Of a stretch of 64,000 nucleotides of DNA, positions 1 to 7,982 are shown in pieces (within the stretch, counting starts at the first letter, position 1; every line of letters starts with the position of its first letter). This DNA is from a virus, in IMG/VR virus record IMGVR_UViG_3300042306_000227, positions 1 to 64,000 of that record. One strand, 5' to 3'. A program made the translations under genes and the position numbers. Under the pieces are notes generated by a model, which was not told the DNA's origin, ran no database searches, and saw only the letters and a list, made by a program, of their open reading frames with translations.

Positions 1-327
1 TGAATTGGGGTTAGATGCCATGTAACTAATTGATTGACAGCTCACTCCTAAATAGTTAGCCAAATGGGAAACTTTTATGGCGTACCTATTTATAAGTATA
101 AAAACTATCATCTTTTTTGCTTGCTTGGCATCTGATGATTTTCTCCATGAAATGATTTCTTCCACAGAAACATTATAAATTTCAGTAATACGATTGACAA
201 CATATTGAATAATTTTTTGATGAATGTCATCATCCCCAATTTTCTTGAGGATGACAACACATCTTTTATTATCCTTTAGGCATTCTTGCTTTAGCTCATC
301 AATAAGCCTTTGGATTTTGTCTGACAT
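1..327 (-). CDS. DnaA C-terminal (domain IV)-like helix-turn-helix protein, truncated at window edge
   Basis: Not in the ORF track. Read by hand from ATG 327 (MSDKIQ...) and open to base 1. 'IIQYVVNRITEIYNVSVEEIISWRK...AKKMIVFIL...SHLANYLGVSCQSISY' follows the DnaA-CTD/HTH pattern. Confidence 0.6.
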   Translation of the reverse strand, partial: MSDKIQRLIDELKQECLKDNKRCVVILKKIGDDDIHQKIIQYVVNRITEIYNVSVEEIISWRKSSDAKQAKKMIVFILINRYAIKVSHLANYLGVSCQSISYMASNPNS

Positions 328-620
328 TAGATTGTTATTTTGATACATTTAACTACAGACTTGGTTTTCTTTGGCTCTCTTTCTAGGATATTAGCTGATA
401 GCCTGTTACCCCATTTTTTAACCACCACAAACCTTTCATTGCTCACAGGTTCCTCAAACATCAGGTCAAACTTGCTCCTATGCTTGTTGTGGTGCTGTTT
501 GCCATCAGACTTGTTCCATGCTAGGAATGATTTTTGTCCTGCTACTAAACCTAAAATTAGGTCTTTTGTCTCTCCGATTTGGTTAACTTGTAAACCATTT
601 TTTGTTCTTAGATTTTTCAT
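327..620 (-). CDS. hypothetical protein
   Basis: 97 aa, A-rich upstream sequence, stop/start coupled with the next gene. Confidence 0.7.
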   Translation of the reverse strand: MKNLRTKNGLQVNQIGETKDLILGLVAGQKSFLAWNKSDGKQHHNKHRSKFDLMFEEPVSNERFVVVKKWGNRLSANILEREPKKTKSVVKCIKITI

Positions 621-647
621 TTGTTTTTATTTTTTGGTTAATGAAAA

Positions 648-782
648 TTATTGTTTTAAGAAATAGTACATCAATCCGAATATGAAATACATGGGTATCA
701 TCATCCATATATTATCAGATGCGCTTATGTCTTTGTCCCATAGAAACGCACCAATACCCAATGCTATTGCGACCTCAATCAC
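648..782 (-). CDS. small membrane protein (44 aa, GTG start)
   Basis: Read by hand: VIEVAIALGIGAFLWDKDISASDNIWMMIPMYFIFGLMYYFLKQ; fills the gap in the operon. Confidence 0.5.
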   Translation of the reverse strand: MIEVAIALGIGAFLWDKDISASDNIWMMIPMYFIFGLMYYFLKQ

Positions 783-1065
783 CTTTTTTATTTTCTTCAT
801 CCTTGAATATGTTTTTTAAAATTTCCTCACCTTCCATCTCTCGTTCAAATTGCCTGTAGCCATCGTTCATAGATAGTGTCATTGCTTTGCTTAATACTAG
901 CAAATCAATTACGCTCTTACCTGATAAATCGCTACATGCTTTGATTAGATGCGATGCTTGTAAACATCTTACCTTTTTAAACTGCTCGTCTTTTGACATA
1001 ACTGCTTCTAGTGTTAGCTGTGATGCTATGCTGACAATTAGTTCAACGCCTTTCAAATTCTCCAT
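775..1065 (-). CDS. hypothetical protein
   Basis: 96 aa in a tightly packed minus-strand operon. Confidence 0.7.
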   Translation of the reverse strand: MENLKGVELIVSIASQLTLEAVMSKDEQFKKVRCLQASHLIKACSDLSGKSVIDLLVLSKAMTLSMNDGYRQFEREMEGEEILKNIFKDEENKKGD

Positions 1066-1231
1066 TGTTGTATGTTGTGTTATTAATTAATCCTGTTCCT
1101 TTGCAATCTTTACATTCGTATGCTTTTTCATAATCTAAACCTTGCTCCTCACTTCCTGCATAGTCTAAATAGAATCCATCACCCTTGCATGTGGGACATG
1201 TGATTGTGATTTGTACATGCGCTTGTTTCAT
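1043..1231 (-). CDS. DnaJ-type zinc-finger protein
   Basis: Two CxxCxGxG motifs (CPTCKGDG, CKDCKGTG). Confidence 0.75.
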   Translation of the reverse strand: MKQAHVQITITCPTCKGDGFYLDYAGSEEQGLDYEKAYECKDCKGTGLINNTTYNNGEFERR

Positions 1232-1425
1232 GATGTTTCGTTTATTTCGTTTAAGAATGCTTTTTCTTTGATAGGGTCACTCACCCATAGGTTATATAAC
1301 TCCTCTAGTTGTTTATATCTATCTTCTGAATACCACGCATTGTGATACAATTCTGCGATAAATATTTGTCTTTCTCTAGGTGTCAAATCTGTGAATGTTG
1401 ATACCTGTTGTTTTAATATGCTCAT
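1228..1425 (-). CDS. hypothetical protein
   Basis: 65 aa, ATGA overlap with the next gene. Confidence 0.7.
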   Translation of the reverse strand: MSILKQQVSTFTDLTPRERQIFIAELYHNAWYSEDRYKQLEELYNLWVSDPIKEKAFLNEINETS

Positions 1426-1432
1426 TGTTTTT

Positions 1433-1735
1433 TTAATTTAAATTGTCAAATGCCCTGTTAATTATATCGTTTATTGCTTGGATGTTAGGCTTATGTTCAT
1501 CCTCATCAAAATCAATTGTATTGATTAACTCTTTAGCACGATGATTGATGATAGTTATGGCTGTCTGTATCTCTGCATCATCCCATAGTTGTTCTATCTT
1601 AGTGACATACAGGATGGATGTTATTACAGCATCCATGAAATCATTGTAGTCATCATCGTTCTGAATAGCTACATCTACTACTATCTTAGTTAATATATTT
1701 ATCAGGACTTCCTGACCTGTCATGCTCATGCTCAT
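1433..1735 (-). CDS. hypothetical acidic protein
   Basis: 100 aa, ATGA overlap with the upstream gene. Confidence 0.7.
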   Translation of the reverse strand: MSMSMTGQEVLINILTKIVVDVAIQNDDDYNDFMDAVITSILYVTKIEQLWDDAEIQTAITIINHRAKELINTIDFDEDEHKPNIQAINDIINRAFDNLN

Positions 1736-1947
1736 ACGATATGATTTATTTTTTTATACTTGTTGTTACATAAATTCACTACAGAAAAATACAATACATC
1801 ATTCTCATGAACTCCCATGTCACTAAACACCCACCACTTGTCATGTCCCTGATTATTGTATTCATGTGTAGCATAATACTTGTTCTCATCCATTGATACT
1901 TCAAAATGTTCTTTGGTATCAATCTTAATTAAATTTACTTTGTCCAT
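1732..1947 (-). CDS. hypothetical protein
   Basis: Start moved to MDKVNL (1947), immediately after the upstream stop at 1949. Confidence 0.65.
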   Translation of the reverse strand: MDKVNLIKIDTKEHFEVSMDENKYYATHEYNNQGHDKWWVFSDMGVHENDVLYFSVVNLCNNKYKKINHIV

Positions 1948-1948
1948 G

Positions 1949-2152
1949 TTAATTGGTTTTTGTTGCGATGAATAAAATATGTACATAAGGTGAATCATAA
2001 GGTACATTCAATTGGTCACATACTTGGTTCCATGACTCAATGTCTTGTACAAAATCTTCAGGATATAGTGTAAGATACTTTGGTGTGGGAGCTATGTCCC
2101 ACTTGCCAATAGTTAATACTTTCTGCTGTTGCTCTGTTAAAAATTTTTCCAT
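1949..2152 (-). CDS. hypothetical protein
   Basis: 67 aa, packed in the operon. Confidence 0.7.
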   Translation of the reverse strand: MEKFLTEQQQKVLTIGKWDIAPTPKYLTLYPEDFVQDIESWNQVCDQLNVPYDSPYVHILFIATKTN

Positions 2153-2154
2153 GT

Positions 2155-3162
2155 TTATATGTTTTCATAGTTATCAAATGAATTGTTATATTCCTCTATC
2201 TCTGAGTAGATAGGCTTAGCACCTATGTACATCTTCTCACATTCACTGCATAGATGGAATCCATCGTATCTGTGTGATGCCACATTTACATTACATTCAT
2301 CGCAATGGTACAATCCTTCAACTTCTTTTTCAAATTGTCCTGTCTCTGTACCCATCAATGTAAGGTATCCGTAATCCTTAGCACATGATGTGCAACAATC
2401 AAACTTCTTCTCGTATGATGTCTTGTATACCCAATCATCACAATCTAGGCAATGGATGTAGTCACCTGCCTGATGTTTAATTTCTGCTGAGTCTCTGTCA
2501 ATATGAAAGTCTAACTTGCTTTGTGTAGCACCTTTGTCCCAATCATAGTTGTACTTGTTAGTCTTCTTGCTGTCATACTTGTGAATCTTAGTGCCACCAT
2601 AATCTAACCATTCGCTAGGCTTGTAGTTGCTGTTGCTGAACAATACACCTGTCTCTGTATCTGTAACGCATGCATGCTCGTTAACGATATATACCTTGTT
2701 GTCAATAGTCAGGAATGCAAACTTGCTACCTACAATGTCTCTGCCTATCAAATCCATGATAGCCTTCTGTTTGTAAAAGTCTCTAGGTAACTTGCGTAAT
2801 ACCTGCTCCATGTATTGGTATGTGTCACTGCGCTTGGCTGTTGATGGGAATTGTCTGATGATACCATTGTGAACGAATACCAAACCTTTGTTGATAAGAA
2901 ATGGATGTGTATTCTCATAGTCTACATTACTGCCTGTGGCAATCCTGCCATGACCTATGAAATGTGATTGAGGATATTTAGCAACAGCATCCTGATACTT
3001 ATTCCATAATTGCTTTGCATCAGGCTTTGCTGACTTAACGATGACTAGCCTGTCACCTGTGGTGTATACGAATCCGAATCCTTGAGGATTGTTTTCTATG
3101 ATGGTGTTGAAATGGTCTTGCTTTAAGACTTGCTTAGGTTTTTTTACAAAGAATGTACACAT
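2155..3162 (-). CDS. class II (Ntn) glutamine amidotransferase with C-terminal Cys/zinc-ribbon region
   Basis: N-terminal M-C nucleophile; NPQGFG, HGRIAT, NTHPF, HNG and SDT motifs; four CxxC pairs near the C-terminus. Confidence 0.9.
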   Translation of the reverse strand: MCTFFVKKPKQVLKQDHFNTIIENNPQGFGFVYTTGDRLVIVKSAKPDAKQLWNKYQDAVAKYPQSHFIGHGRIATGSNVDYENTHPFLINKGLVFVHNGIIRQFPSTAKRSDTYQYMEQVLRKLPRDFYKQKAIMDLIGRDIVGSKFAFLTIDNKVYIVNEHACVTDTETGVLFSNSNYKPSEWLDYGGTKIHKYDSKKTNKYNYDWDKGATQSKLDFHIDRDSAEIKHQAGDYIHCLDCDDWVYKTSYEKKFDCCTSCAKDYGYLTLMGTETGQFEKEVEGLYHCDECNVNVASHRYDGFHLCSECEKMYIGAKPIYSEIEEYNNSFDNYENI

Positions 3163-3185
3163 AGTTTTGATTATTTGATTGTTTA

Positions 3186-3216
3186 CAAAGTTAGTTATAA
3201 TATTTTGTTTGACAAA
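3186..3216 (-). promoter_or_regulatory. Bacteroidota primary-sigma promoter
   Basis: TTTG-N19-TAACTTTG on the minus strand upstream of the amidotransferase. Confidence 0.75.
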
Positions 3217-3219
3217 ATT

Positions 3220-3267
3220 TGTAGGGGATTAAATTAATCTAGGAATAGATATGTCGCTTCCCCTACA
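3220..3267. other. inverted repeat / hairpin between amidoligase and amidotransferase
   Basis: TGTAGGGGA...TCCCCTACA, 9-bp arms with a 30-nt loop. Confidence 0.45.
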
Positions 3268-3278
3268 GCCATGAAAAA

Positions 3279-5432
3279 TTAAAAAGGATTTTGAGATGAA
3301 TCAGTTAATAAGTTTAGACTCAATTCATGTTCATTGAATATATACACGAATCTATTACCATCTAGTCTCTTAGCTAGAGCGCATATATATGTGCCATCCT
3401 CGTGTCTGATAAAGTTCATGTAGTACCTTTCAGATGACAAAGTAGATAGCTTAAATTCAGCCCTGAAACACATGTTTGTTGTATCTGTGAATCTAGATGT
3501 GGTAATTAGCATTGCAAATATTCTGTTGAAAAATGACATCTCGCTCTGAGAATATGTTTGACATACTTGCATATCATTGTCTCTGCATGAATCAAATAAT
3601 CTTTCTGTCTGTGAATTAATAACCGATACAGGCAATGTCTCATAGTTTAATACAGAGCTAATCACACCACCAATAGTATTCAATGCTTTTTTCACCATGA
3701 TACTAAAGTTACTGCTGTATTCACATGGTGTGCCTAATGATACCATGCTGTTTGGCGCAAAGAATTGACATAGCTGTTCATTTGTCGCTCTCAAATTGTT
3801 TACATAAATTTCATCTGAAAGGAATGCTGTATTCAATTCTGTTCTTGACCTTGATGATAGTTCTCTGTATCTTACTACATCCTGAGCGAATGATGGTTCT
3901 TCTGTCACATCTGTAGAACGCTCCTGTCTGTATGAATCATCCACATTATTTGCGCTGTATGTACCTAATGTAGGCAAATCATCTGAGAATCTACTAGCAT
4001 CAAAACTTCCACCTGTCACCTGTGTATCAGGTAAGTCTACATGGAATACTCTTTCTCTAGGTGCTTCTGTAGGTACTTCTGTAGTCTCTGTAGGAGTAAT
4101 GATACTCATGCTCATCATCTGCTCAACTTTCTTAATCGTGTTAATTGTAACGATACCACATTTGTACTTAGCTGATAATGTGATGAATGTCTTGAACTTG
4201 TTCTTGAACTTATCCATGTCACCATTGCACACTACATTAAGCATAAAATTATATAGCTTAGAATTCTTTTTAGCCATCTCAAGGATAACCTTGTTATGTG
4301 TCTTACCATACAGGTCATTTAATACTATGCGCATCAAATCAATTCTGTTCTTAAGGATGGTGTTGCTCTTAATTGCAGGGAATATTCTGAATTCAAGAAT
4401 CTCATTGTTCTTCACATAGAATGATTGGTATTTTCTAGGTGAGCGAAGGTATGTACCAAACTGCTGTGCTTGGCAATAGCTGTTGTTTAAACGCTTCTCA
4501 TAGATTGAATAGAATATTGGTAAACTTCCTTTCACTTTCTTAAGGATGTCCTTAGATTGTACACCATTGATTGATACATTGATGTGACCGCCACATCTGT
4601 CGCTAGTTTCCGCATCCAATATGTCTCTAACAGGTGCAAGTACTTCATTGATGACTGCATCATTGTTCAATGGCAATACAGGAGAAATCAATTCAAATCC
4701 ACCATCACCTAAACTTCCATCTCTCTCTTTCTTAAATCCTGTCTCAAACGCTAGTTTAATAGCATTCTCTCTGTCCCTGAATGTATAGTCTTGCTTCTCT
4801 GCTTCAAAACCAAAGTTAACTGCACCTAGAGTCTTGTCCATGTACTTTGTGAAATTAGATGCAATCTTTGGATGCCATGCTGAATAATGATAACCTAGCA
4901 ATGTATCTGTTCCCCAAATTTGGCTGTCATCTGTAACCTTTACAAGTCTTCCAACTTCCACCAATGACTCTGTTAAATCAGGTGCAATCATATCATCACT
5001 GATAACAATAACTTTAATCTTGTATCCGTTATGCTCTCTGTTTTCATCAATGTAATACTTCATACCGAATTCATTTACTAGCAAATCAAATAGTGAACTG
5101 CTGATATGAATTTCTGTATCATTTAGCTTTAATCTTATTCTGCTTCCACCTGAATGTGTTGAATACAATTGTGGTACGATTATTCTTCCGCTGTTCATTT
5201 TAGCTAGTCTGAACATGTTAGCATATCTGCTTTCACTATTCGTTCCTGATGAGTAAACGCTCTCGTAATCATAGACTGCATCACTTGTCATTGAACTTGA
5301 TGTCATGACTACAAACTTTTGGATGTACTTGTTAGAGAATGCATCCAATGGTAATAAAAATTTGTTTCTGCTTCTCTCATTTACAGGTGTCAATACAGAG
5401 AATTTTCTAGGTTGTTTTTTAACTTGATTCAT
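3279..5432 (-). CDS. putative amidoligase (COOH-NH2 ligase, Amidoligase_2-like) with long N- and C-terminal extensions
   Basis: FGFEAE, ERDGSL..GFELISP, CGGHINVS and LEFRIF motifs. Start at MNQVKK (5432) is preferred over 5489, which overlaps the upstream gene. Confidence 0.85.
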   Translation of the reverse strand: MNQVKKQPRKFSVLTPVNERSRNKFLLPLDAFSNKYIQKFVVMTSSSMTSDAVYDYESVYSSGTNSESRYANMFRLAKMNSGRIIVPQLYSTHSGGSRIRLKLNDTEIHISSSLFDLLVNEFGMKYYIDENREHNGYKIKVIVISDDMIAPDLTESLVEVGRLVKVTDDSQIWGTDTLLGYHYSAWHPKIASNFTKYMDKTLGAVNFGFEAEKQDYTFRDRENAIKLAFETGFKKERDGSLGDGGFELISPVLPLNNDAVINEVLAPVRDILDAETSDRCGGHINVSINGVQSKDILKKVKGSLPIFYSIYEKRLNNSYCQAQQFGTYLRSPRKYQSFYVKNNEILEFRIFPAIKSNTILKNRIDLMRIVLNDLYGKTHNKVILEMAKKNSKLYNFMLNVVCNGDMDKFKNKFKTFITLSAKYKCGIVTINTIKKVEQMMSMSIITPTETTEVPTEAPRERVFHVDLPDTQVTGGSFDASRFSDDLPTLGTYSANNVDDSYRQERSTDVTEEPSFAQDVVRYRELSSRSRTELNTAFLSDEIYVNNLRATNEQLCQFFAPNSMVSLGTPCEYSSNFSIMVKKALNTIGGVISSVLNYETLPVSVINSQTERLFDSCRDNDMQVCQTYSQSEMSFFNRIFAMLITTSRFTDTTNMCFRAEFKLSTLSSERYYMNFIRHEDGTYICALAKRLDGNRFVYIFNEHELSLNLLTDSSQNPF

Positions 5433-5460
5433 GGCTGTGAATTTTTGGTTATTGGTTAAA

Positions 5461-5652
5461 TTATTTGATTGATTTTTGAGCATTGTCATAGTACATGTAA
5501 CTTCCTAATGCACCTGTCGTAAACACAAAGCATATGATTGCTAGATTGACAGCTGTTGGTTCCATTGTCATGAAACCTAATACAGGAATGAACATTGTCA
5601 CGATTGACAATAAAACTGCTAATACCATGTTGATTTTGTAATAATTACTCAT
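5461..5652 (-). CDS. two-TM membrane protein
   Basis: 63 aa with two hydrophobic helices. Confidence 0.7.
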   Translation of the reverse strand: MSNYYKINMVLAVLLSIVTMFIPVLGFMTMEPTAVNLAIICFVFTTGALGSYMYYDNAQKSIK

Positions 5653-5674
5653 TTGATTAAGATTTACTGATTGA

Positions 5675-5857
5675 TTAAATTGTTATAAATACAGGTTCTT
5701 TTTTGCTGTCACTTTCGTATACATAAAAAAAGTAATTAGGGAAATAGCTTTGCAACCTTTCTACTTCTTTCTCTGCCTCATGTTTAGTTTTATAATAGCC
5801 ATGTGAACCAATGTTTCCATAGCCTGAATCCTCAATGACATGATAATACTTCCTCAT
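5675..5857 (-). CDS. hypothetical protein (60 aa)
   Basis: Start at MRKYYH (5857). Its upstream sequence duplicates that of the 5652 start. Confidence 0.7.
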   Translation of the reverse strand: MRKYYHVIEDSGYGNIGSHGYYKTKHEAEKEVERLQSYFPNYFFYVYESDSKKEPVFITI

Positions 5858-5861
5858 TTGA

Positions 5862-6041
5862 TTAAGATTTATGATTGATAAAATTGTGAACGATGGTGAA
5901 TAAAGATGGCGCAAAGTTTCCCTGTAATTCATGCAGTACAATTGTTCCATCTGTGTTGATAGCTTCTACCTGATACACATCAAATTCATGTGTGTAATCA
6001 TCTGTGAACGATACATAATCGTATACTTTAAATTGTCCCAT
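5862..6041 (-). CDS. hypothetical protein (59 aa), first gene of the early operon
   Basis: Not in the track. Read by hand: MGQFKVYDYVSFTDDYTHEFDVYQVEAINTDGTIVLHELQGNFAPSLFTIVHNFINHKS; A-rich initiation region. Confidence 0.7.
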   Translation of the reverse strand: MGQFKVYDYVSFTDDYTHEFDVYQVEAINTDGTIVLHELQGNFAPSLFTIVHNFINHKS

Positions 6042-6059
6042 GTTAAATGGTTTTTTAAT

Positions 6060-6113
6060 TACTATTTCATCCTTTCGGAATCATCAGCACACATAACACA
6101 TGTGTGTATAGCA
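6060..6113 (-). ncRNA. type III hammerhead ribozyme
   Basis: Minus strand: UGCUAUA^CACACAU-GUGUU-AUGUGUG-CUGAUGA-UUCC-GAAA-GGAU-GAAA-UAGUA. Complete core, 7-bp stem I, GAAA-capped stem II, 6-bp stem III, AUA cleavage triplet. Confidence 0.9.
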
Positions 6114-6144
6114 TCGCAATCCCTAGTATGCTCATCTGTATGCT

Positions 6145-6371
6145 CTATGTCTGTTCCTGTACTTAGATAACGATTTACATCGTGATGGGTACATTATCTG
6201 TAGCTACATGCAGTCTATTGTATAAAAGTTCATGCTTTCAAGCTAACTACTAGCATGATGTGTATGCATTCAATCATGGCGTAGTGTACTTGGTGTGTCT
6301 CTGTAGCCTGTCTACTTTTGTTCCTGTACTTATAGTGTGCTTGTCAGCAGTTTTGGGTACATTGTCCGTAG
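6145..6371 (-). ncRNA. two copies of an unidentified ~60-nt structured leader motif (6145-6203, 6312-6371)
   Basis: CUACRGAYAAUGUACCCA-[variable hairpin]-UAAGUACAGGAACA-N4-UAG in both copies. Confidence 0.55.
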
Positions 6372-6446
6372 ATGTCGTTGATTGTCAATCAGTTATGTAT
6401 TGGATATACATGTAACGCATTGATTATCAATAACTTAGGCGTAAAC

Positions 6447-6483
6447 TTCAAAGAACTTGTCGTGCATTGACATCACAATACTA
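6447..6483 (-). promoter_or_regulatory. possible early promoter (-7-like TAGTATTG) followed by boxA-like GTTCTTTGAA
   Basis: Minus strand TAGTATTG at 6476-6483 (one mismatch to TAnnTTTG) and GTTCTTTGAA at 6447-6456. Confidence 0.4.
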
Positions 6484-6615
6484 CATCATGTATGTATACA
6501 AACATCAATTGCACCCAAATATTTTTCAAGATATTTTTTTAGACACAGATAACACAATGTGAATCAATCAGATGCAACAGAAAAAAAATTTTAAAAAAAG
6601 TTATCAGGACAGCAA

Positions 6616-7040
6616 ACAGGGATAATTGCAAACGTTTGCGGTAATTTTTGCATAGTTTTCTGGAAAACATTGAAGGTGCATAAAAGGACACAGATACAGG
6701 ATGTGATTGTTAACAGACAACAGAAGGAAACAGGACACAATGTATACAGGAGAAAACACAGGAGAGAATAGTTATAACTAAGAACTTAGTCACATACAGG
6801 TGTGACACAGGAAGACAGGCAAAGGTTATTTCGGATTATTACACAGGGACAAAATACACAGGAGATAGGTAAGCATGACAGATACACAGGAGACAAAGCA
6901 TATAGGTGTATGGGCAATGTTACGCATACAGGCTTACATAGGCATCTGATAACACTATAACACATTGATTGATAATGAATTAGGTTACTAACCTACATTA
7001 GGATTGACCTACCCACTCAGGCAAAGCAGTTTCCCACAGG
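6616..7040 (+). repeat. strand-biased ACAGG repeat region (origin or terminus candidate)
   Basis: 13 ACAGG counted on the + strand; ACACAGGAGA at 6756, 6856 and 6884. Confidence 0.7.
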
Positions 7041-7210
7041 TTAGGCATGGCCTGTCATTAATACTGGAACCCTACGCTATCAGATTGATGCCCTTATTCT
7101 TAATAGGCTGGAATGGGCAAATGTGTGTGCAGATTGCAAGGTGCAGAAAGACCTACCCATGTGCTGAAAGCATATGTACCCAGTCTGCAGAACGTTAAGT
7201 TGCTGGGCCA

Positions 7211-7243
7211 GGGTCGGCCGCCCCCTATTAGGGCGGGCCGCCC
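7211..7243. other. GC-rich hairpin
   Basis: GGGTCGGCCGCCC-CCTATTA-GGGCGGGCCGCCC in an otherwise AT-rich genome; no U-tract. Confidence 0.7.
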
Positions 7244-7244
7244 A

Positions 7245-7372
7245 ACACTGCACTTTTGCACGTGTAAATCGTAATACTACGATACGTATATATTCGTAAT
7301 TATACGAATTGATATACGAATGTCCAGTTATTGCTTTACTAAACTGGACTTAAGTAAAGCTATTGCTATACT
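7245..7372. repeat. array of five different short palindromes
   Basis: Includes ATCGTA-N4-TACGAT, ATTCGTA-N4-TACGAAT and GTCCAGTT-N12-AACTGGAC. Confidence 0.7.
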
Positions 7373-7468
7373 ATGAGAAATACTATGTAATATATATAAG
7401 AAGGAAACCTCATAACTCTCTGACAATCAATACCTGTTTCTCAATTTTTTTAAAAATAAAAAGGAAAA

Positions 7469-7500
7469 TTTGGTTTATGAGGGTATAATAACTAGATTTG
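7469..7500 (+). promoter_or_regulatory. Bacteroidota primary-sigma promoter
   Basis: TTTG-N20-TAGATTTG. Confidence 0.75.
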
Positions 7501-7523
7501 TTACTCAATCTAAGCACAAATAT

Positions 7524-7982
7524 ATGGAAGAATATAATTTCAAAAAAGCTTTATTAAAGTCTCAGGAAGCAGTGGTTTTTATGGGGGATTTTTTTAAAAG
7601 CAAAGGATATGAGGTAGATATACCTGAACTAGTTATAGCTCCATATAATGTGGGGGCATTTTCAGAATATGCAGACCAAGGAGATATGTTCTTAAGAAAG
7701 GATGGGGAAGAGATTAAACTAGAAATAAAGAATATAAATACACCATTTACTACAACATGGCCTTATAAGGATGTAATAGTAAACTCATACCCTGGCTATC
7801 AATCAAAAATAGTTAAACCAGATGTGCATATAATACTAAATAAAGATAAGACACACTACATATCAATAAGAAATGAAACATTTGACAAATGGGAGCTTAG
7901 GAGAACCTTTGATAGGGTAAAGCAAAAAGATTTACTATTCTATTACGTAGACAAGAAGTATATTAATTTTTTTAAAATATAA
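7524..7982 (+). CDS. putative PD-(D/E)XK-fold nuclease
   Basis: 'DQGDMF...KLEIKN'; start moved to ATG 7524, downstream of the promoter. Confidence 0.55.
   Translation: MEEYNFKKALLKSQEAVVFMGDFFKSKGYEVDIPELVIAPYNVGAFSEYADQGDMFLRKDGEEIKLEIKNINTPFTTTWPYKDVIVNSYPGYQSKIVKPDVHIILNKDKTHYISIRNETFDKWELRRTFDRVKQKDLLFYYVDKKYINFFKI

Follow-up and report, generated by a model that had tools for sequence, protein, structure and literature searches.

A hammerhead motif at the head of a phage operon

The 64,000-nucleotide (nt) stretch of viral DNA analysed here (the window; positions 1–64,000 of the IMG/VR record IMGVR_UViG_3300042306_000227) comes from a tailed phage, as indicated by PHROG matches to large terminase, portal and tail fibre proteins, and carries on its minus strand an array of co-oriented genes in which a motif with the architecture of a type III hammerhead ribozyme lies closely upstream of, and on the same strand as, the first gene. 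Read in the direction of these genes, the locus consists of a long putative leader, the motif, two small open reading frames (ORFs) and, within positions 2155–5489, the genes for a 335-residue class-II glutamine amidotransferase (GATase-II)-like protein and for a 736-residue protein, both again on the minus strand. A 2651-residue ORF of this phage matched no family, and the window holds no transfer RNA (tRNA) or transfer-messenger RNA (tmRNA) genes.

Table 1 Features of the hammerhead locus, numbered as in the window (MFE, minimum free energy)
Feature	Position	Strand	Basis
Type III hammerhead ribozyme motif, whole	6060..6113	-	Sequence, MFE fold, descriptor, covariance model
Stem III 5′ strand UGCUAU, U16.1 at 6108	6108..6113	-	Pairs with 6065-6060
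A17 of the AUA triplet; predicted scissile bond 6107/6106	6107	-	Position relative to core
Stem I hairpin CACACAU-GUGUU-AUGUGUG, loop GUGUU, 7–8 base pairs	6088..6106	-	Sequence and fold
Core CUGAUGA (C3–A9)	6081..6087	-	Sequence
Stem II UUCC-GAAA-GGAU, U10.1–U11.1	6069..6080	-	Sequence
Core GAA (G12–A14)	6066..6068	-	Sequence
Stem III 3′ strand AUAGUA, A15.1 at 6065	6060..6065	-	Sequence
First downstream ORF, 59 residues, ATG 18 nt past the 3′ end of the motif	5862..6041	-	ORF call
Non-coding stretch, putative leader	6114..6487	-	Stops in all three minus-strand frames
Bipartite repeat AATGTACCCA-N20-TAAGTACAGG, copy B	6156..6195	-	Pattern against shuffles
Bipartite repeat AATGTACCCA-N20/21-TAAGTACAGG, copy A	6323..6363	-	Pattern against shuffles

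A preliminary description of this DNA had proposed that the motif is a type III hammerhead, complete and oriented like the genes downstream, and we find the core, the three helices and their order all to be present. Every consensus core base (C3, U4, G5, A6, N7, G8 and A9, together with G12, A13 and A14) is in place, A15.1 pairs with U16.1, and H17 is A, i.e. not G. The descriptor parse gives a stem I of 8 base pairs (bp), a stem II of 3 bp plus a U-U apposition that stands where the G10.1–C11.1 pair at the base of this stem would be, and a stem III of 6 bp, one of them G-U. The helices follow the type III order in both the MFE and the centroid structure: loops close stems I and II, while stem III is left open. 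The AUA triplet and the predicted cleavage site lie, by their position relative to the core, where the preliminary description had put them, and the distance from that site to the ATG of the first ORF is 65 nt as claimed. This ATG is indeed the first ORF start, though not the first AUG in the strict sense, as the ribozyme itself contains AUG triplets.

The hammerhead is both the MFE and the centroid structure of a 59-nt piece holding the motif (−12.9 kcal/mol; z score −1.74, with 11 of 200 shuffles equally stable). The bare spacing CTGATGA N6–30 GAAA occurs at chance level (two matches against 1.7 expected). A full descriptor, by contrast, which called for a stem I of at least 4 bp, a stem II of at least 3 bp with an optional mismatch at 10.1, a stem III of at least 4 bp, A15.1–U16.1 and an H17 other than G, was matched in only one of 300 dinucleotide shuffles of the window, and a match equal to the real one (stem I of at least 7 bp and stem III of at least 6 bp) in none of the 300. 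The motif is the sole match to the descriptor, and to the covariance model described below, within the window.

A family of hammerheads in viral and metagenome sequences

Besides the window, 12 IMG/VR stretches share an exact 23-mer spanning the core and stem II, as do at least 119 metagenome stretches; 128 of the 129 metagenome matches listed parse as type III hammerheads, with at least 79 distinct combinations of stems I and III. A looser pattern that left positions 10.1, 10.2, 11.2 and 11.1 free matched 46 IMG/VR stretches, and 38 of the resulting 47 matches (these and the window) parse as type III. The other nine fail to do so (L012, L018, L019, L026, L027, L028, L031, L035 and L041); by eye L012 resembles a type I form.

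We aligned 32 distinct sequences, the window among them, each row being required to allow at least 4 bp in stem I and at least 3 bp in stem III. In this alignment 92.6% of the cells fall in standard pairs against 66.3% in shuffles, controls with slid partners gave 33–46% pairing, and none of 500 shuffles reached the real level. Changes on both sides were seen in 12 of 17 pairs, and stem I is paired in 100% of the cells; these compensatory changes are seen at the level of the family, the only close relative of this phage lacking the element. As the family pattern was taken from the core and stem II of the window, agreement in those parts is partly by construction and tells correspondingly less in favour of the motif. 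The length of stem I, the conservation of loop I and the leave-one-out score go beyond the limits of the alignment. Stem I measures 7–8 bp in all rows, loop I is conserved as a UGUGU type, and of 79 distinct U-U copies 73 combine a stem I of 7 bp with a 4-nt loop, the other six having 8 bp and a 3-nt loop. Type III hammerheads need a tertiary contact between loops I and II to be active at physiological Mg2+; for such a contact the window would offer GUGUU and GAAA, both in line with the conserved loops of the family. A covariance model built from the 31 other sequences scored the window at 62.4 bits (E 6e-20), and with the family model we found 20 more full-length hammerheads in the IMG/VR loci, none of them selected by pattern, with up to five per locus; two to five copies are present in many of the loci retrieved. 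The motif and its membership are thus direct observations, and on these sequences the family to which the window copy belongs is a real phage hammerhead family.

Some members of the family have further elements beside the ribozyme. In many metagenome loci, L066, L068, L116, L117, L127 and L138 among them, the U-U hammerhead is followed within a few bases by a shared motif like GTTCTTTAAA / GATCTTTGAA, which we did not find after the hammerhead of the window. The loci L005, L006, L011, L013, L020, L021, L030, L036, L046 and L171 have a strong GC-rich hairpin, often GGGGGUGUCUUCAAAGACACUCCCCC, that reaches up to the 5′ strand of stem III or overlaps with it; after cleavage this hairpin could cap the 3′ end of the upstream RNA and act as a competitor of stem III. 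Its counterpart in the window is a weak hairpin of 5 bp (AGCAU...AUGCU). One locus (L017) has an Rfam DUF805b RNA at 3733–3765 on the plus strand (42.7 bits, above gathering), ~530 nt downstream of its hammerhead. Three short ‘viral contigs’, L026 (366 nt), L027 (457 nt) and L047 (322 nt), carry canonical GUCC-GAAA-GGAC hammerheads and their size suggests viroid-like or satellite RNAs, not phage DNA; the 32-sequence alignment includes L047.

The U10.1–U11.1 variant

The U-U apposition at 10.1/11.1, which the preliminary description had called unusual, is present, but it is less out of the ordinary than was thought: it is an already known feature, a natural variant reported to support more activity than any other mispair (Perreault et al. 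2011, PMC3088659, section 8), and it occurs in 13 of 44 distinct by-stander hammerheads of the loci retrieved, a by-stander being one whose stem II fits neither search pattern. It is no bar to membership of the hammerheads, and it may lower the rate of cleavage. U-U is accompanied by compensating changes in the rest of stem II (UUCC/GGAU, UUGC/GCAU, UACC/GGUU, UGCC/GGUU and UUAC/GUAU). When the by-standers are sorted by the 10.1–11.1 apposition and by H17, 28 are G-C with C, 11 are U-U with A, two are U-U with U, two are G-C with A and one is A-A with C; of the 79 distinct U-U copies selected by pattern, 58 have A at H17, 13 have C and eight have U. In these counts U-U goes mostly with A17 and G-C with C17, which we regard as a lead and not as a statistic because the copies are interrelated and often lie in one genome. 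The pairing of U-U with A17 nevertheless poses a simple and testable question of structure and activity.

Performance of the Rfam hammerhead model

A search with the Rfam hammerhead models, named as a check in the preliminary description, left the window copy below the cut-off, as it did a canonical relative. At gathering level the window had no Rfam match, at E≤10 no hammerhead was reported in 5900–6300, and RF00008 found nothing at E≤10 over the whole 73-kilobase (kb) record; on a 76-nt slice it gave a local match only, of 10.5 bits (E 8.8) against a gathering cut-off of 48.5 bits. Taken at face value these results speak against a hammerhead. In control searches, however, a canonical family member with a GUC site and a G10.1–C11.1 pair aligned to RF00008 end to end and still scored only 45.4 bits, below the cut-off, and a member with U-U and GUA scored 29.8 bits, so that the window copy is the lowest of the three members tested. 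In nine loci that hold 22 hammerheads by the family model, the gathering search reported none. We discount the miss as counter-evidence because RF00008 misses canonical relatives as well: it is due to the threshold and the model, not to the ribozyme being absent, and the RF00008 cut-off excludes the whole phage hammerhead family. Since even canonical members are lost in this way, phage hammerheads are under-annotated in viral metagenomes.

Downstream genes and the position of the ribozyme

An ORF of at least 35 residues on the same strand starts 10–45 nt downstream of the hammerhead in 28 of 32 family members, the distance in the window being 18 nt; at randomly chosen positions in these loci the figure was 23%, and the opposite strand had such an ORF in 5 of 32. 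The downstream ORFs are mutually unrelated, 27 of them falling into 25 groups, and are also unrelated to the small ORFs of the window. The C-terminal 56 residues of the 59-residue ORF are 64% identical to the end of a 159-residue ORF in L003, the relative discussed below. For the second small ORF the ATG at 5857 is a likelier start than position 5950. A 45-nt direct repeat (5639–5683 and 5844–5887, 91% identical) flanks this ORF, which has the look of a gene cassette that was placed between repeats of an inter-ORF sequence.

In 13 of 32 IMG/VR loci (L005, L006, L011, L013, L020, L021, L023, L029, L032, L033, L036, L039 and L046) the hammerhead adjoins homologues of the two larger genes of the operon, and a further 14 of the 119 metagenome loci listed show one or other of the two. 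The GATase-II-like homologues in the 13 loci are fused to a gamma-glutamyl cyclotransferase domain, and the homology to the 736-residue protein covers its residues ~195–391. The place of the ribozyme within this cassette varies between loci. For the 736-residue protein itself we considered an amidoligase; the only Pfam match, to PF12224 (Amidoligase_2), had an E value of 0.04, and its 14.2 bits fell short of the cut-off of 22, so that the name is a lead and is not established. The homologues in L023 and L029 had no significant Pfam or PHROG match, and a literature search found no paper joining the hammerhead with amidoligase.

The upstream leader

The stretch upstream of the motif was considered as coding sequence and rejected, since all three frames contain stops and only the last 56 residues of the L003 ORF are shared with the window. 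The preliminary description had spoken of a structured leader, a claim that does not hold up: the 373-nt leader is no better folded than shuffled sequence (z score −0.72, 22 of 100 shuffles equally stable). It matches no Rfam family, and among the loci retrieved it has no look-alike beyond the ribozyme, the metagenome matches spanning only the motif (29–66 nt).

What the leader does contain is the bipartite repeat AATGTACCCA-N20/21-TAAGTACAGG, with two matches in the window, both in the leader, and none in 100 shuffles. The copies are 167–168 nt apart (repeat families D6 and D10), and each can form an outer UGUAC/GUACA stem and an inner hairpin, which differs between them (ACGAU-GUAA-AUCGU and UGCU-GACA-AGCA). 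This repeat may be an RNA motif, a protein-binding site or a promoter element. A two-row alignment hinted at a decayed second hammerhead in leader unit A, which is not supported, the model with its filters off giving 4.2 bits or less there. A scan of 5800–7600 for sigma-70 promoters and terminators was at chance (for sigma-70, seven found against 8.1 expected).

There are relatives that carry this leader, and RNA libraries contain its sequence. Metatranscriptome contigs from two libraries of different studies cover 6199–6352 and 6162–6341 with six and nine differing letters (~95–96% alike to the window), and a contig of a third library lies at 6427–6588. In the four RNA-library runs no contig covers 6060–6113, and contigs of this kind cannot show transcription or RNA ends. 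Further upstream, in a gene-free divergent region of 1.4 kb, positions 6640–6900 contain many short repeats of the CCTGT/ACAGG type (families D4, D12 and D14), and two GC-rich near-palindromes (D15) lie at 7210–7243; together they are suggestive of iterons, or of an origin or a regulatory region.

The phage genome and its closest relative

The record has 73,267 bases, and its final 7.2 kb (66073–73267) repeats the first 7.2 kb (1–7205) with 99.5% identity; the genome is therefore ~66 kb in length and has one copy of the ribozyme. Between the two copies of the repeat there is no difference across 5900–6600; the differences cluster after ~6641, where the end copy resembles L003. Most probably the assembly wrapped around a ~66-kb genome and joined two of its strain variants; the database classes the record as linear without end repeats. 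Among GenBank phages there was no match to 2.1 kb of the locus, and L003 is the one close relative that we found, with 92% identity in the 736-residue protein and 94–96% in the flanking DNA.

Proposed role of the ribozyme and alternatives

We consider it likely that RNA transcribed leftward through this locus cleaves itself as a type III hammerhead, which would provide a host-independent removal of the leader and a defined mRNA end. RNA made over 6113–6060 would fold into the hammerhead and be cut after A17, leaving the upstream non-coding RNA with a 2′,3′-cyclic phosphate. The coding RNA would then start with a 5′-OH and the stem I hairpin and have a 65-nt 5′ untranslated region (UTR), the last ~25 nt of which are A-rich and would be unpaired before the AUG of the first ORF. 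By this route the long leader would be detached and the operon mRNA would acquire one defined, structured and phosphate-free 5′ end without host involvement. Self-cleavage we infer from the intact core and from published work in which the U-U variant and a PaP3 hammerhead were active; the 5′-OH mRNA and the released leader would follow from hammerhead chemistry if cleavage occurs. Processing would set up the first start codon and, given that decay of bacterial mRNA depends on the 5′ end, would probably also set the stability or the translation of the message. A processing role has been proposed for phage hammerheads before (PMC3088659, section 6; PMC6765202), and what we describe is a divergent further example of a ribozyme family known in phages since 2011, not a new mechanism. 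The preliminary description was thus right in kind and overstated as regards novelty and the structure of the leader. It also took the operon to be an early one, which is a supposition.

Several observations weigh against this scheme. In nearest-neighbour folding the hammerhead helices have a probability of 0.30 in the motif alone and, once flanking sequence extends it to between 101 and 531 nt, of 0.04, 0.0004, 0.11 and 0.05; in the 141-nt context the MFE structure is not the hammerhead, competing pairings being preferred. The motif also combines several weakening features, i.e. U-U, only three Watson–Crick pairs in stem II, AUA and A/U-rich stems. L003 lacks the segment ~5684–6487, to which the leader and the ribozyme belong along with most of the first ORF and the second small one, and has other sequence there, with a longer ORF whose last 56 residues match the 59-residue ORF of the window; no other ribozyme was found in this slot of L003 (Rfam, E≤1). 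Because its closest relative is without the element, the ribozyme is dispensable for this type of phage, in which it is an accessory insertion or replacement, and there are no orthologous copies that could show selection at this locus. Accessory status fits the habit of the family, which lies at junctions of variable small genes.

Much of this would equally suit a hammerhead by descent that is too slow or too misfolded to act, that came with a recombined segment and that has no selected role. The motif does lie inside ~800 nt that are replaced in a relative of 94–96% identity, U-U, AUA and weak stems come together in it, longer contexts favour other folds, and its RF00008 score was the lowest of three (10.5 bits against 29.8 and 45.4). 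On the other hand the core is consensus throughout, the three stems are fully complementary, the spacing to the ATG matches that of the family, at least 79 distinct metagenomic hammerheads share its U-U stem II, and activity has been reported for a PaP3 hammerhead (PMC3088659), all of which makes a mere passenger quite unlikely in our judgement. The competing fold might also be regulatory, AGCAUACA in the leader pairing with the 3′ strand of stem I and with C3–U4, so that cleavage would take place only when this pairing is prevented. Exactly this pairing is used by the MFE structure of the 141-nt context, where the hammerhead probability is 0.0004, but that fold is no better than those of shuffles (z score −0.52, 62 of 200), the hammerhead-constrained MFE equals the global MFE in the 251-nt context, and relatives in which the conservation of the alternative pairing could be followed are not available; we hold such a switch to be very improbable.

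It is also conceivable, though we think it unlikely, that the upstream RNA is the selected product, in which case the hammerhead would make the 3′ end, with its cyclic phosphate, of a ~370-nt non-coding RNA (ncRNA), and the effect on the mRNA would be secondary. The long non-coding stretch before the ribozyme, the two hairpin-capable copies of the bipartite motif that are unique to the leader within the window, the leaders of similar length that precede the same kind of hammerhead in PaP3-like phages, and the two 5′UTR-derived ncRNA candidates listed for LUZ24 in PMC10914365 all point in this direction. The leader, however, folds no better than shuffles and belongs to no Rfam family, it is missing from L003 and has no look-alike in the loci retrieved, and the ribozyme of most family members comes after a protein gene and not after an ncRNA. 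Lastly, a chance match to the hammerhead consensus might be argued from the short core spacing, which is at chance level, and from the lack of a significant Rfam match, but it is scarcely credible in view of the single loose match and the absence of an equal one among 300 shuffles, and of loop I and stem lengths that match a family found independently of them. Cleavage of the leftward transcript by the hammerhead remains the reading that we favour.

Comparison with known systems

A BLAST search of GenBank phages with the 54-nt motif matched 71 records, all of Pseudomonas phages, over 24 nt of core and stem II with one mismatch. Two of them, phiIBB-PAA2 and PaP3, both Bruynoghevirus, were examined, and in both the hammerhead is type III with U-U and a GUA site. 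In phiIBB-PAA2 an annotated terminal repeat (1–183) and three predicted promoters (385–701) are followed by ~390 gene-free nt and by the hammerhead at 1088–1140 (64 bits by the leave-one-out model), the stem III of which runs into the orf01 ATG at 1138; the PaP3 hammerhead scores 63.8 bits and stops one base short of orf71. The genes at the left end of these genomes are, we presume, early genes. PaP3-like phages and the window thus have in common a type III ribozyme with U10.1–U11.1, a stem II of the form UUCC-NAAA-GGAU and A17, a 7-bp stem I with a similar loop (UGUGU or UGCGU in the PaP3-like phages), and a place after several hundred non-coding nt and directly before the first ORF of an operon. 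They differ in that the PaP3-like ribozymes have a GUA site, stems richer in G/C and loop II AAAA or UAAA, whereas the window has AUA and GAAA; in that the ribozyme lies on or one base before the start codon, and not 18 nt before it; and in that a GC-rich hairpin abuts stem III. The phages and their hosts are otherwise unrelated, with no DNA similarity outside the motif, and the 736-residue protein has a single GenBank phage match, which is not to a Pseudomonas phage.

A PaP3 hammerhead is listed among the active core variants in PMC3088659 (section 8, Figure S6 legend), and it is likely that this is the U-U copy that we found in PaP3. In the literature search on LUZ24, PaP3 and Bruynoghevirus, PMC3088659 was the only paper with a hammerhead among the matches listed; hammerhead with cyanophage gave apparently none on phage hammerheads, and hammerhead with crass no relevant title, again among the matches listed. 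The available part of PMC10914365, a long-read transcriptome study covering LUZ24 that gives the two candidates mentioned above, does not contain the word ribozyme.

One may speculate that the unrelated phages of the window and of the PaP3/LUZ24-like group converged on, or exchanged, one functional whole design of leader, U-U/A17 hammerhead and first gene, in which the leader would be released with a role of its own and the mRNA left with a 5′-OH, U-U/A17 would be a tuned slower subclass, and the family would travel with the cassette of the GATase-II-like and the weakly amidoligase-like gene. This we put forward tentatively and think unlikely to hold as a whole; if true, it would mean that the ribozyme removes a triphosphate-bearing leader and hands the ribosome a 5′-OH mRNA. 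Taken alone, the finding adds one more phage hammerhead to a kind of element that was described in 2011 and whose function is still unproven. As cultured PaP3-like phages carry the same U-U hammerhead before their first gene, the role of a hammerhead in a leader is testable in a laboratory system and need not be addressed in the present phage, which is uncultured.

Three further systems bear comparison with the locus. Clustered hammerheads of prophages and phages lie in intergenic regions between or before co-oriented genes of inconstant identity, and their proposed role is to cut long phage transcripts into mRNAs of gene or operon length (PMC3088659, section 6). The family loci with two to five copies and inconstant downstream ORFs resemble these, whereas in the window one copy stands before the first gene of an operon and none flanks the genes. 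The viroid and satellite RNA hammerheads of RF00008 (Hammerhead_3) are alike in core, topology and stem sizes; the window differs in having U-U for G10.1–C11.1 and an AUA site, and in lying in the context of a DNA phage and not of rolling-circle RNA replication. Early transcripts of the T7 type are long RNAs that are cut at RNase III sites into mRNAs with structured ends. Site-specific cutting of a long transcript is the principle common to that system and to the one proposed here, in which, unlike in T7, cutting by the RNA itself would need no host enzyme and would leave 5′-OH and cyclic phosphate ends.

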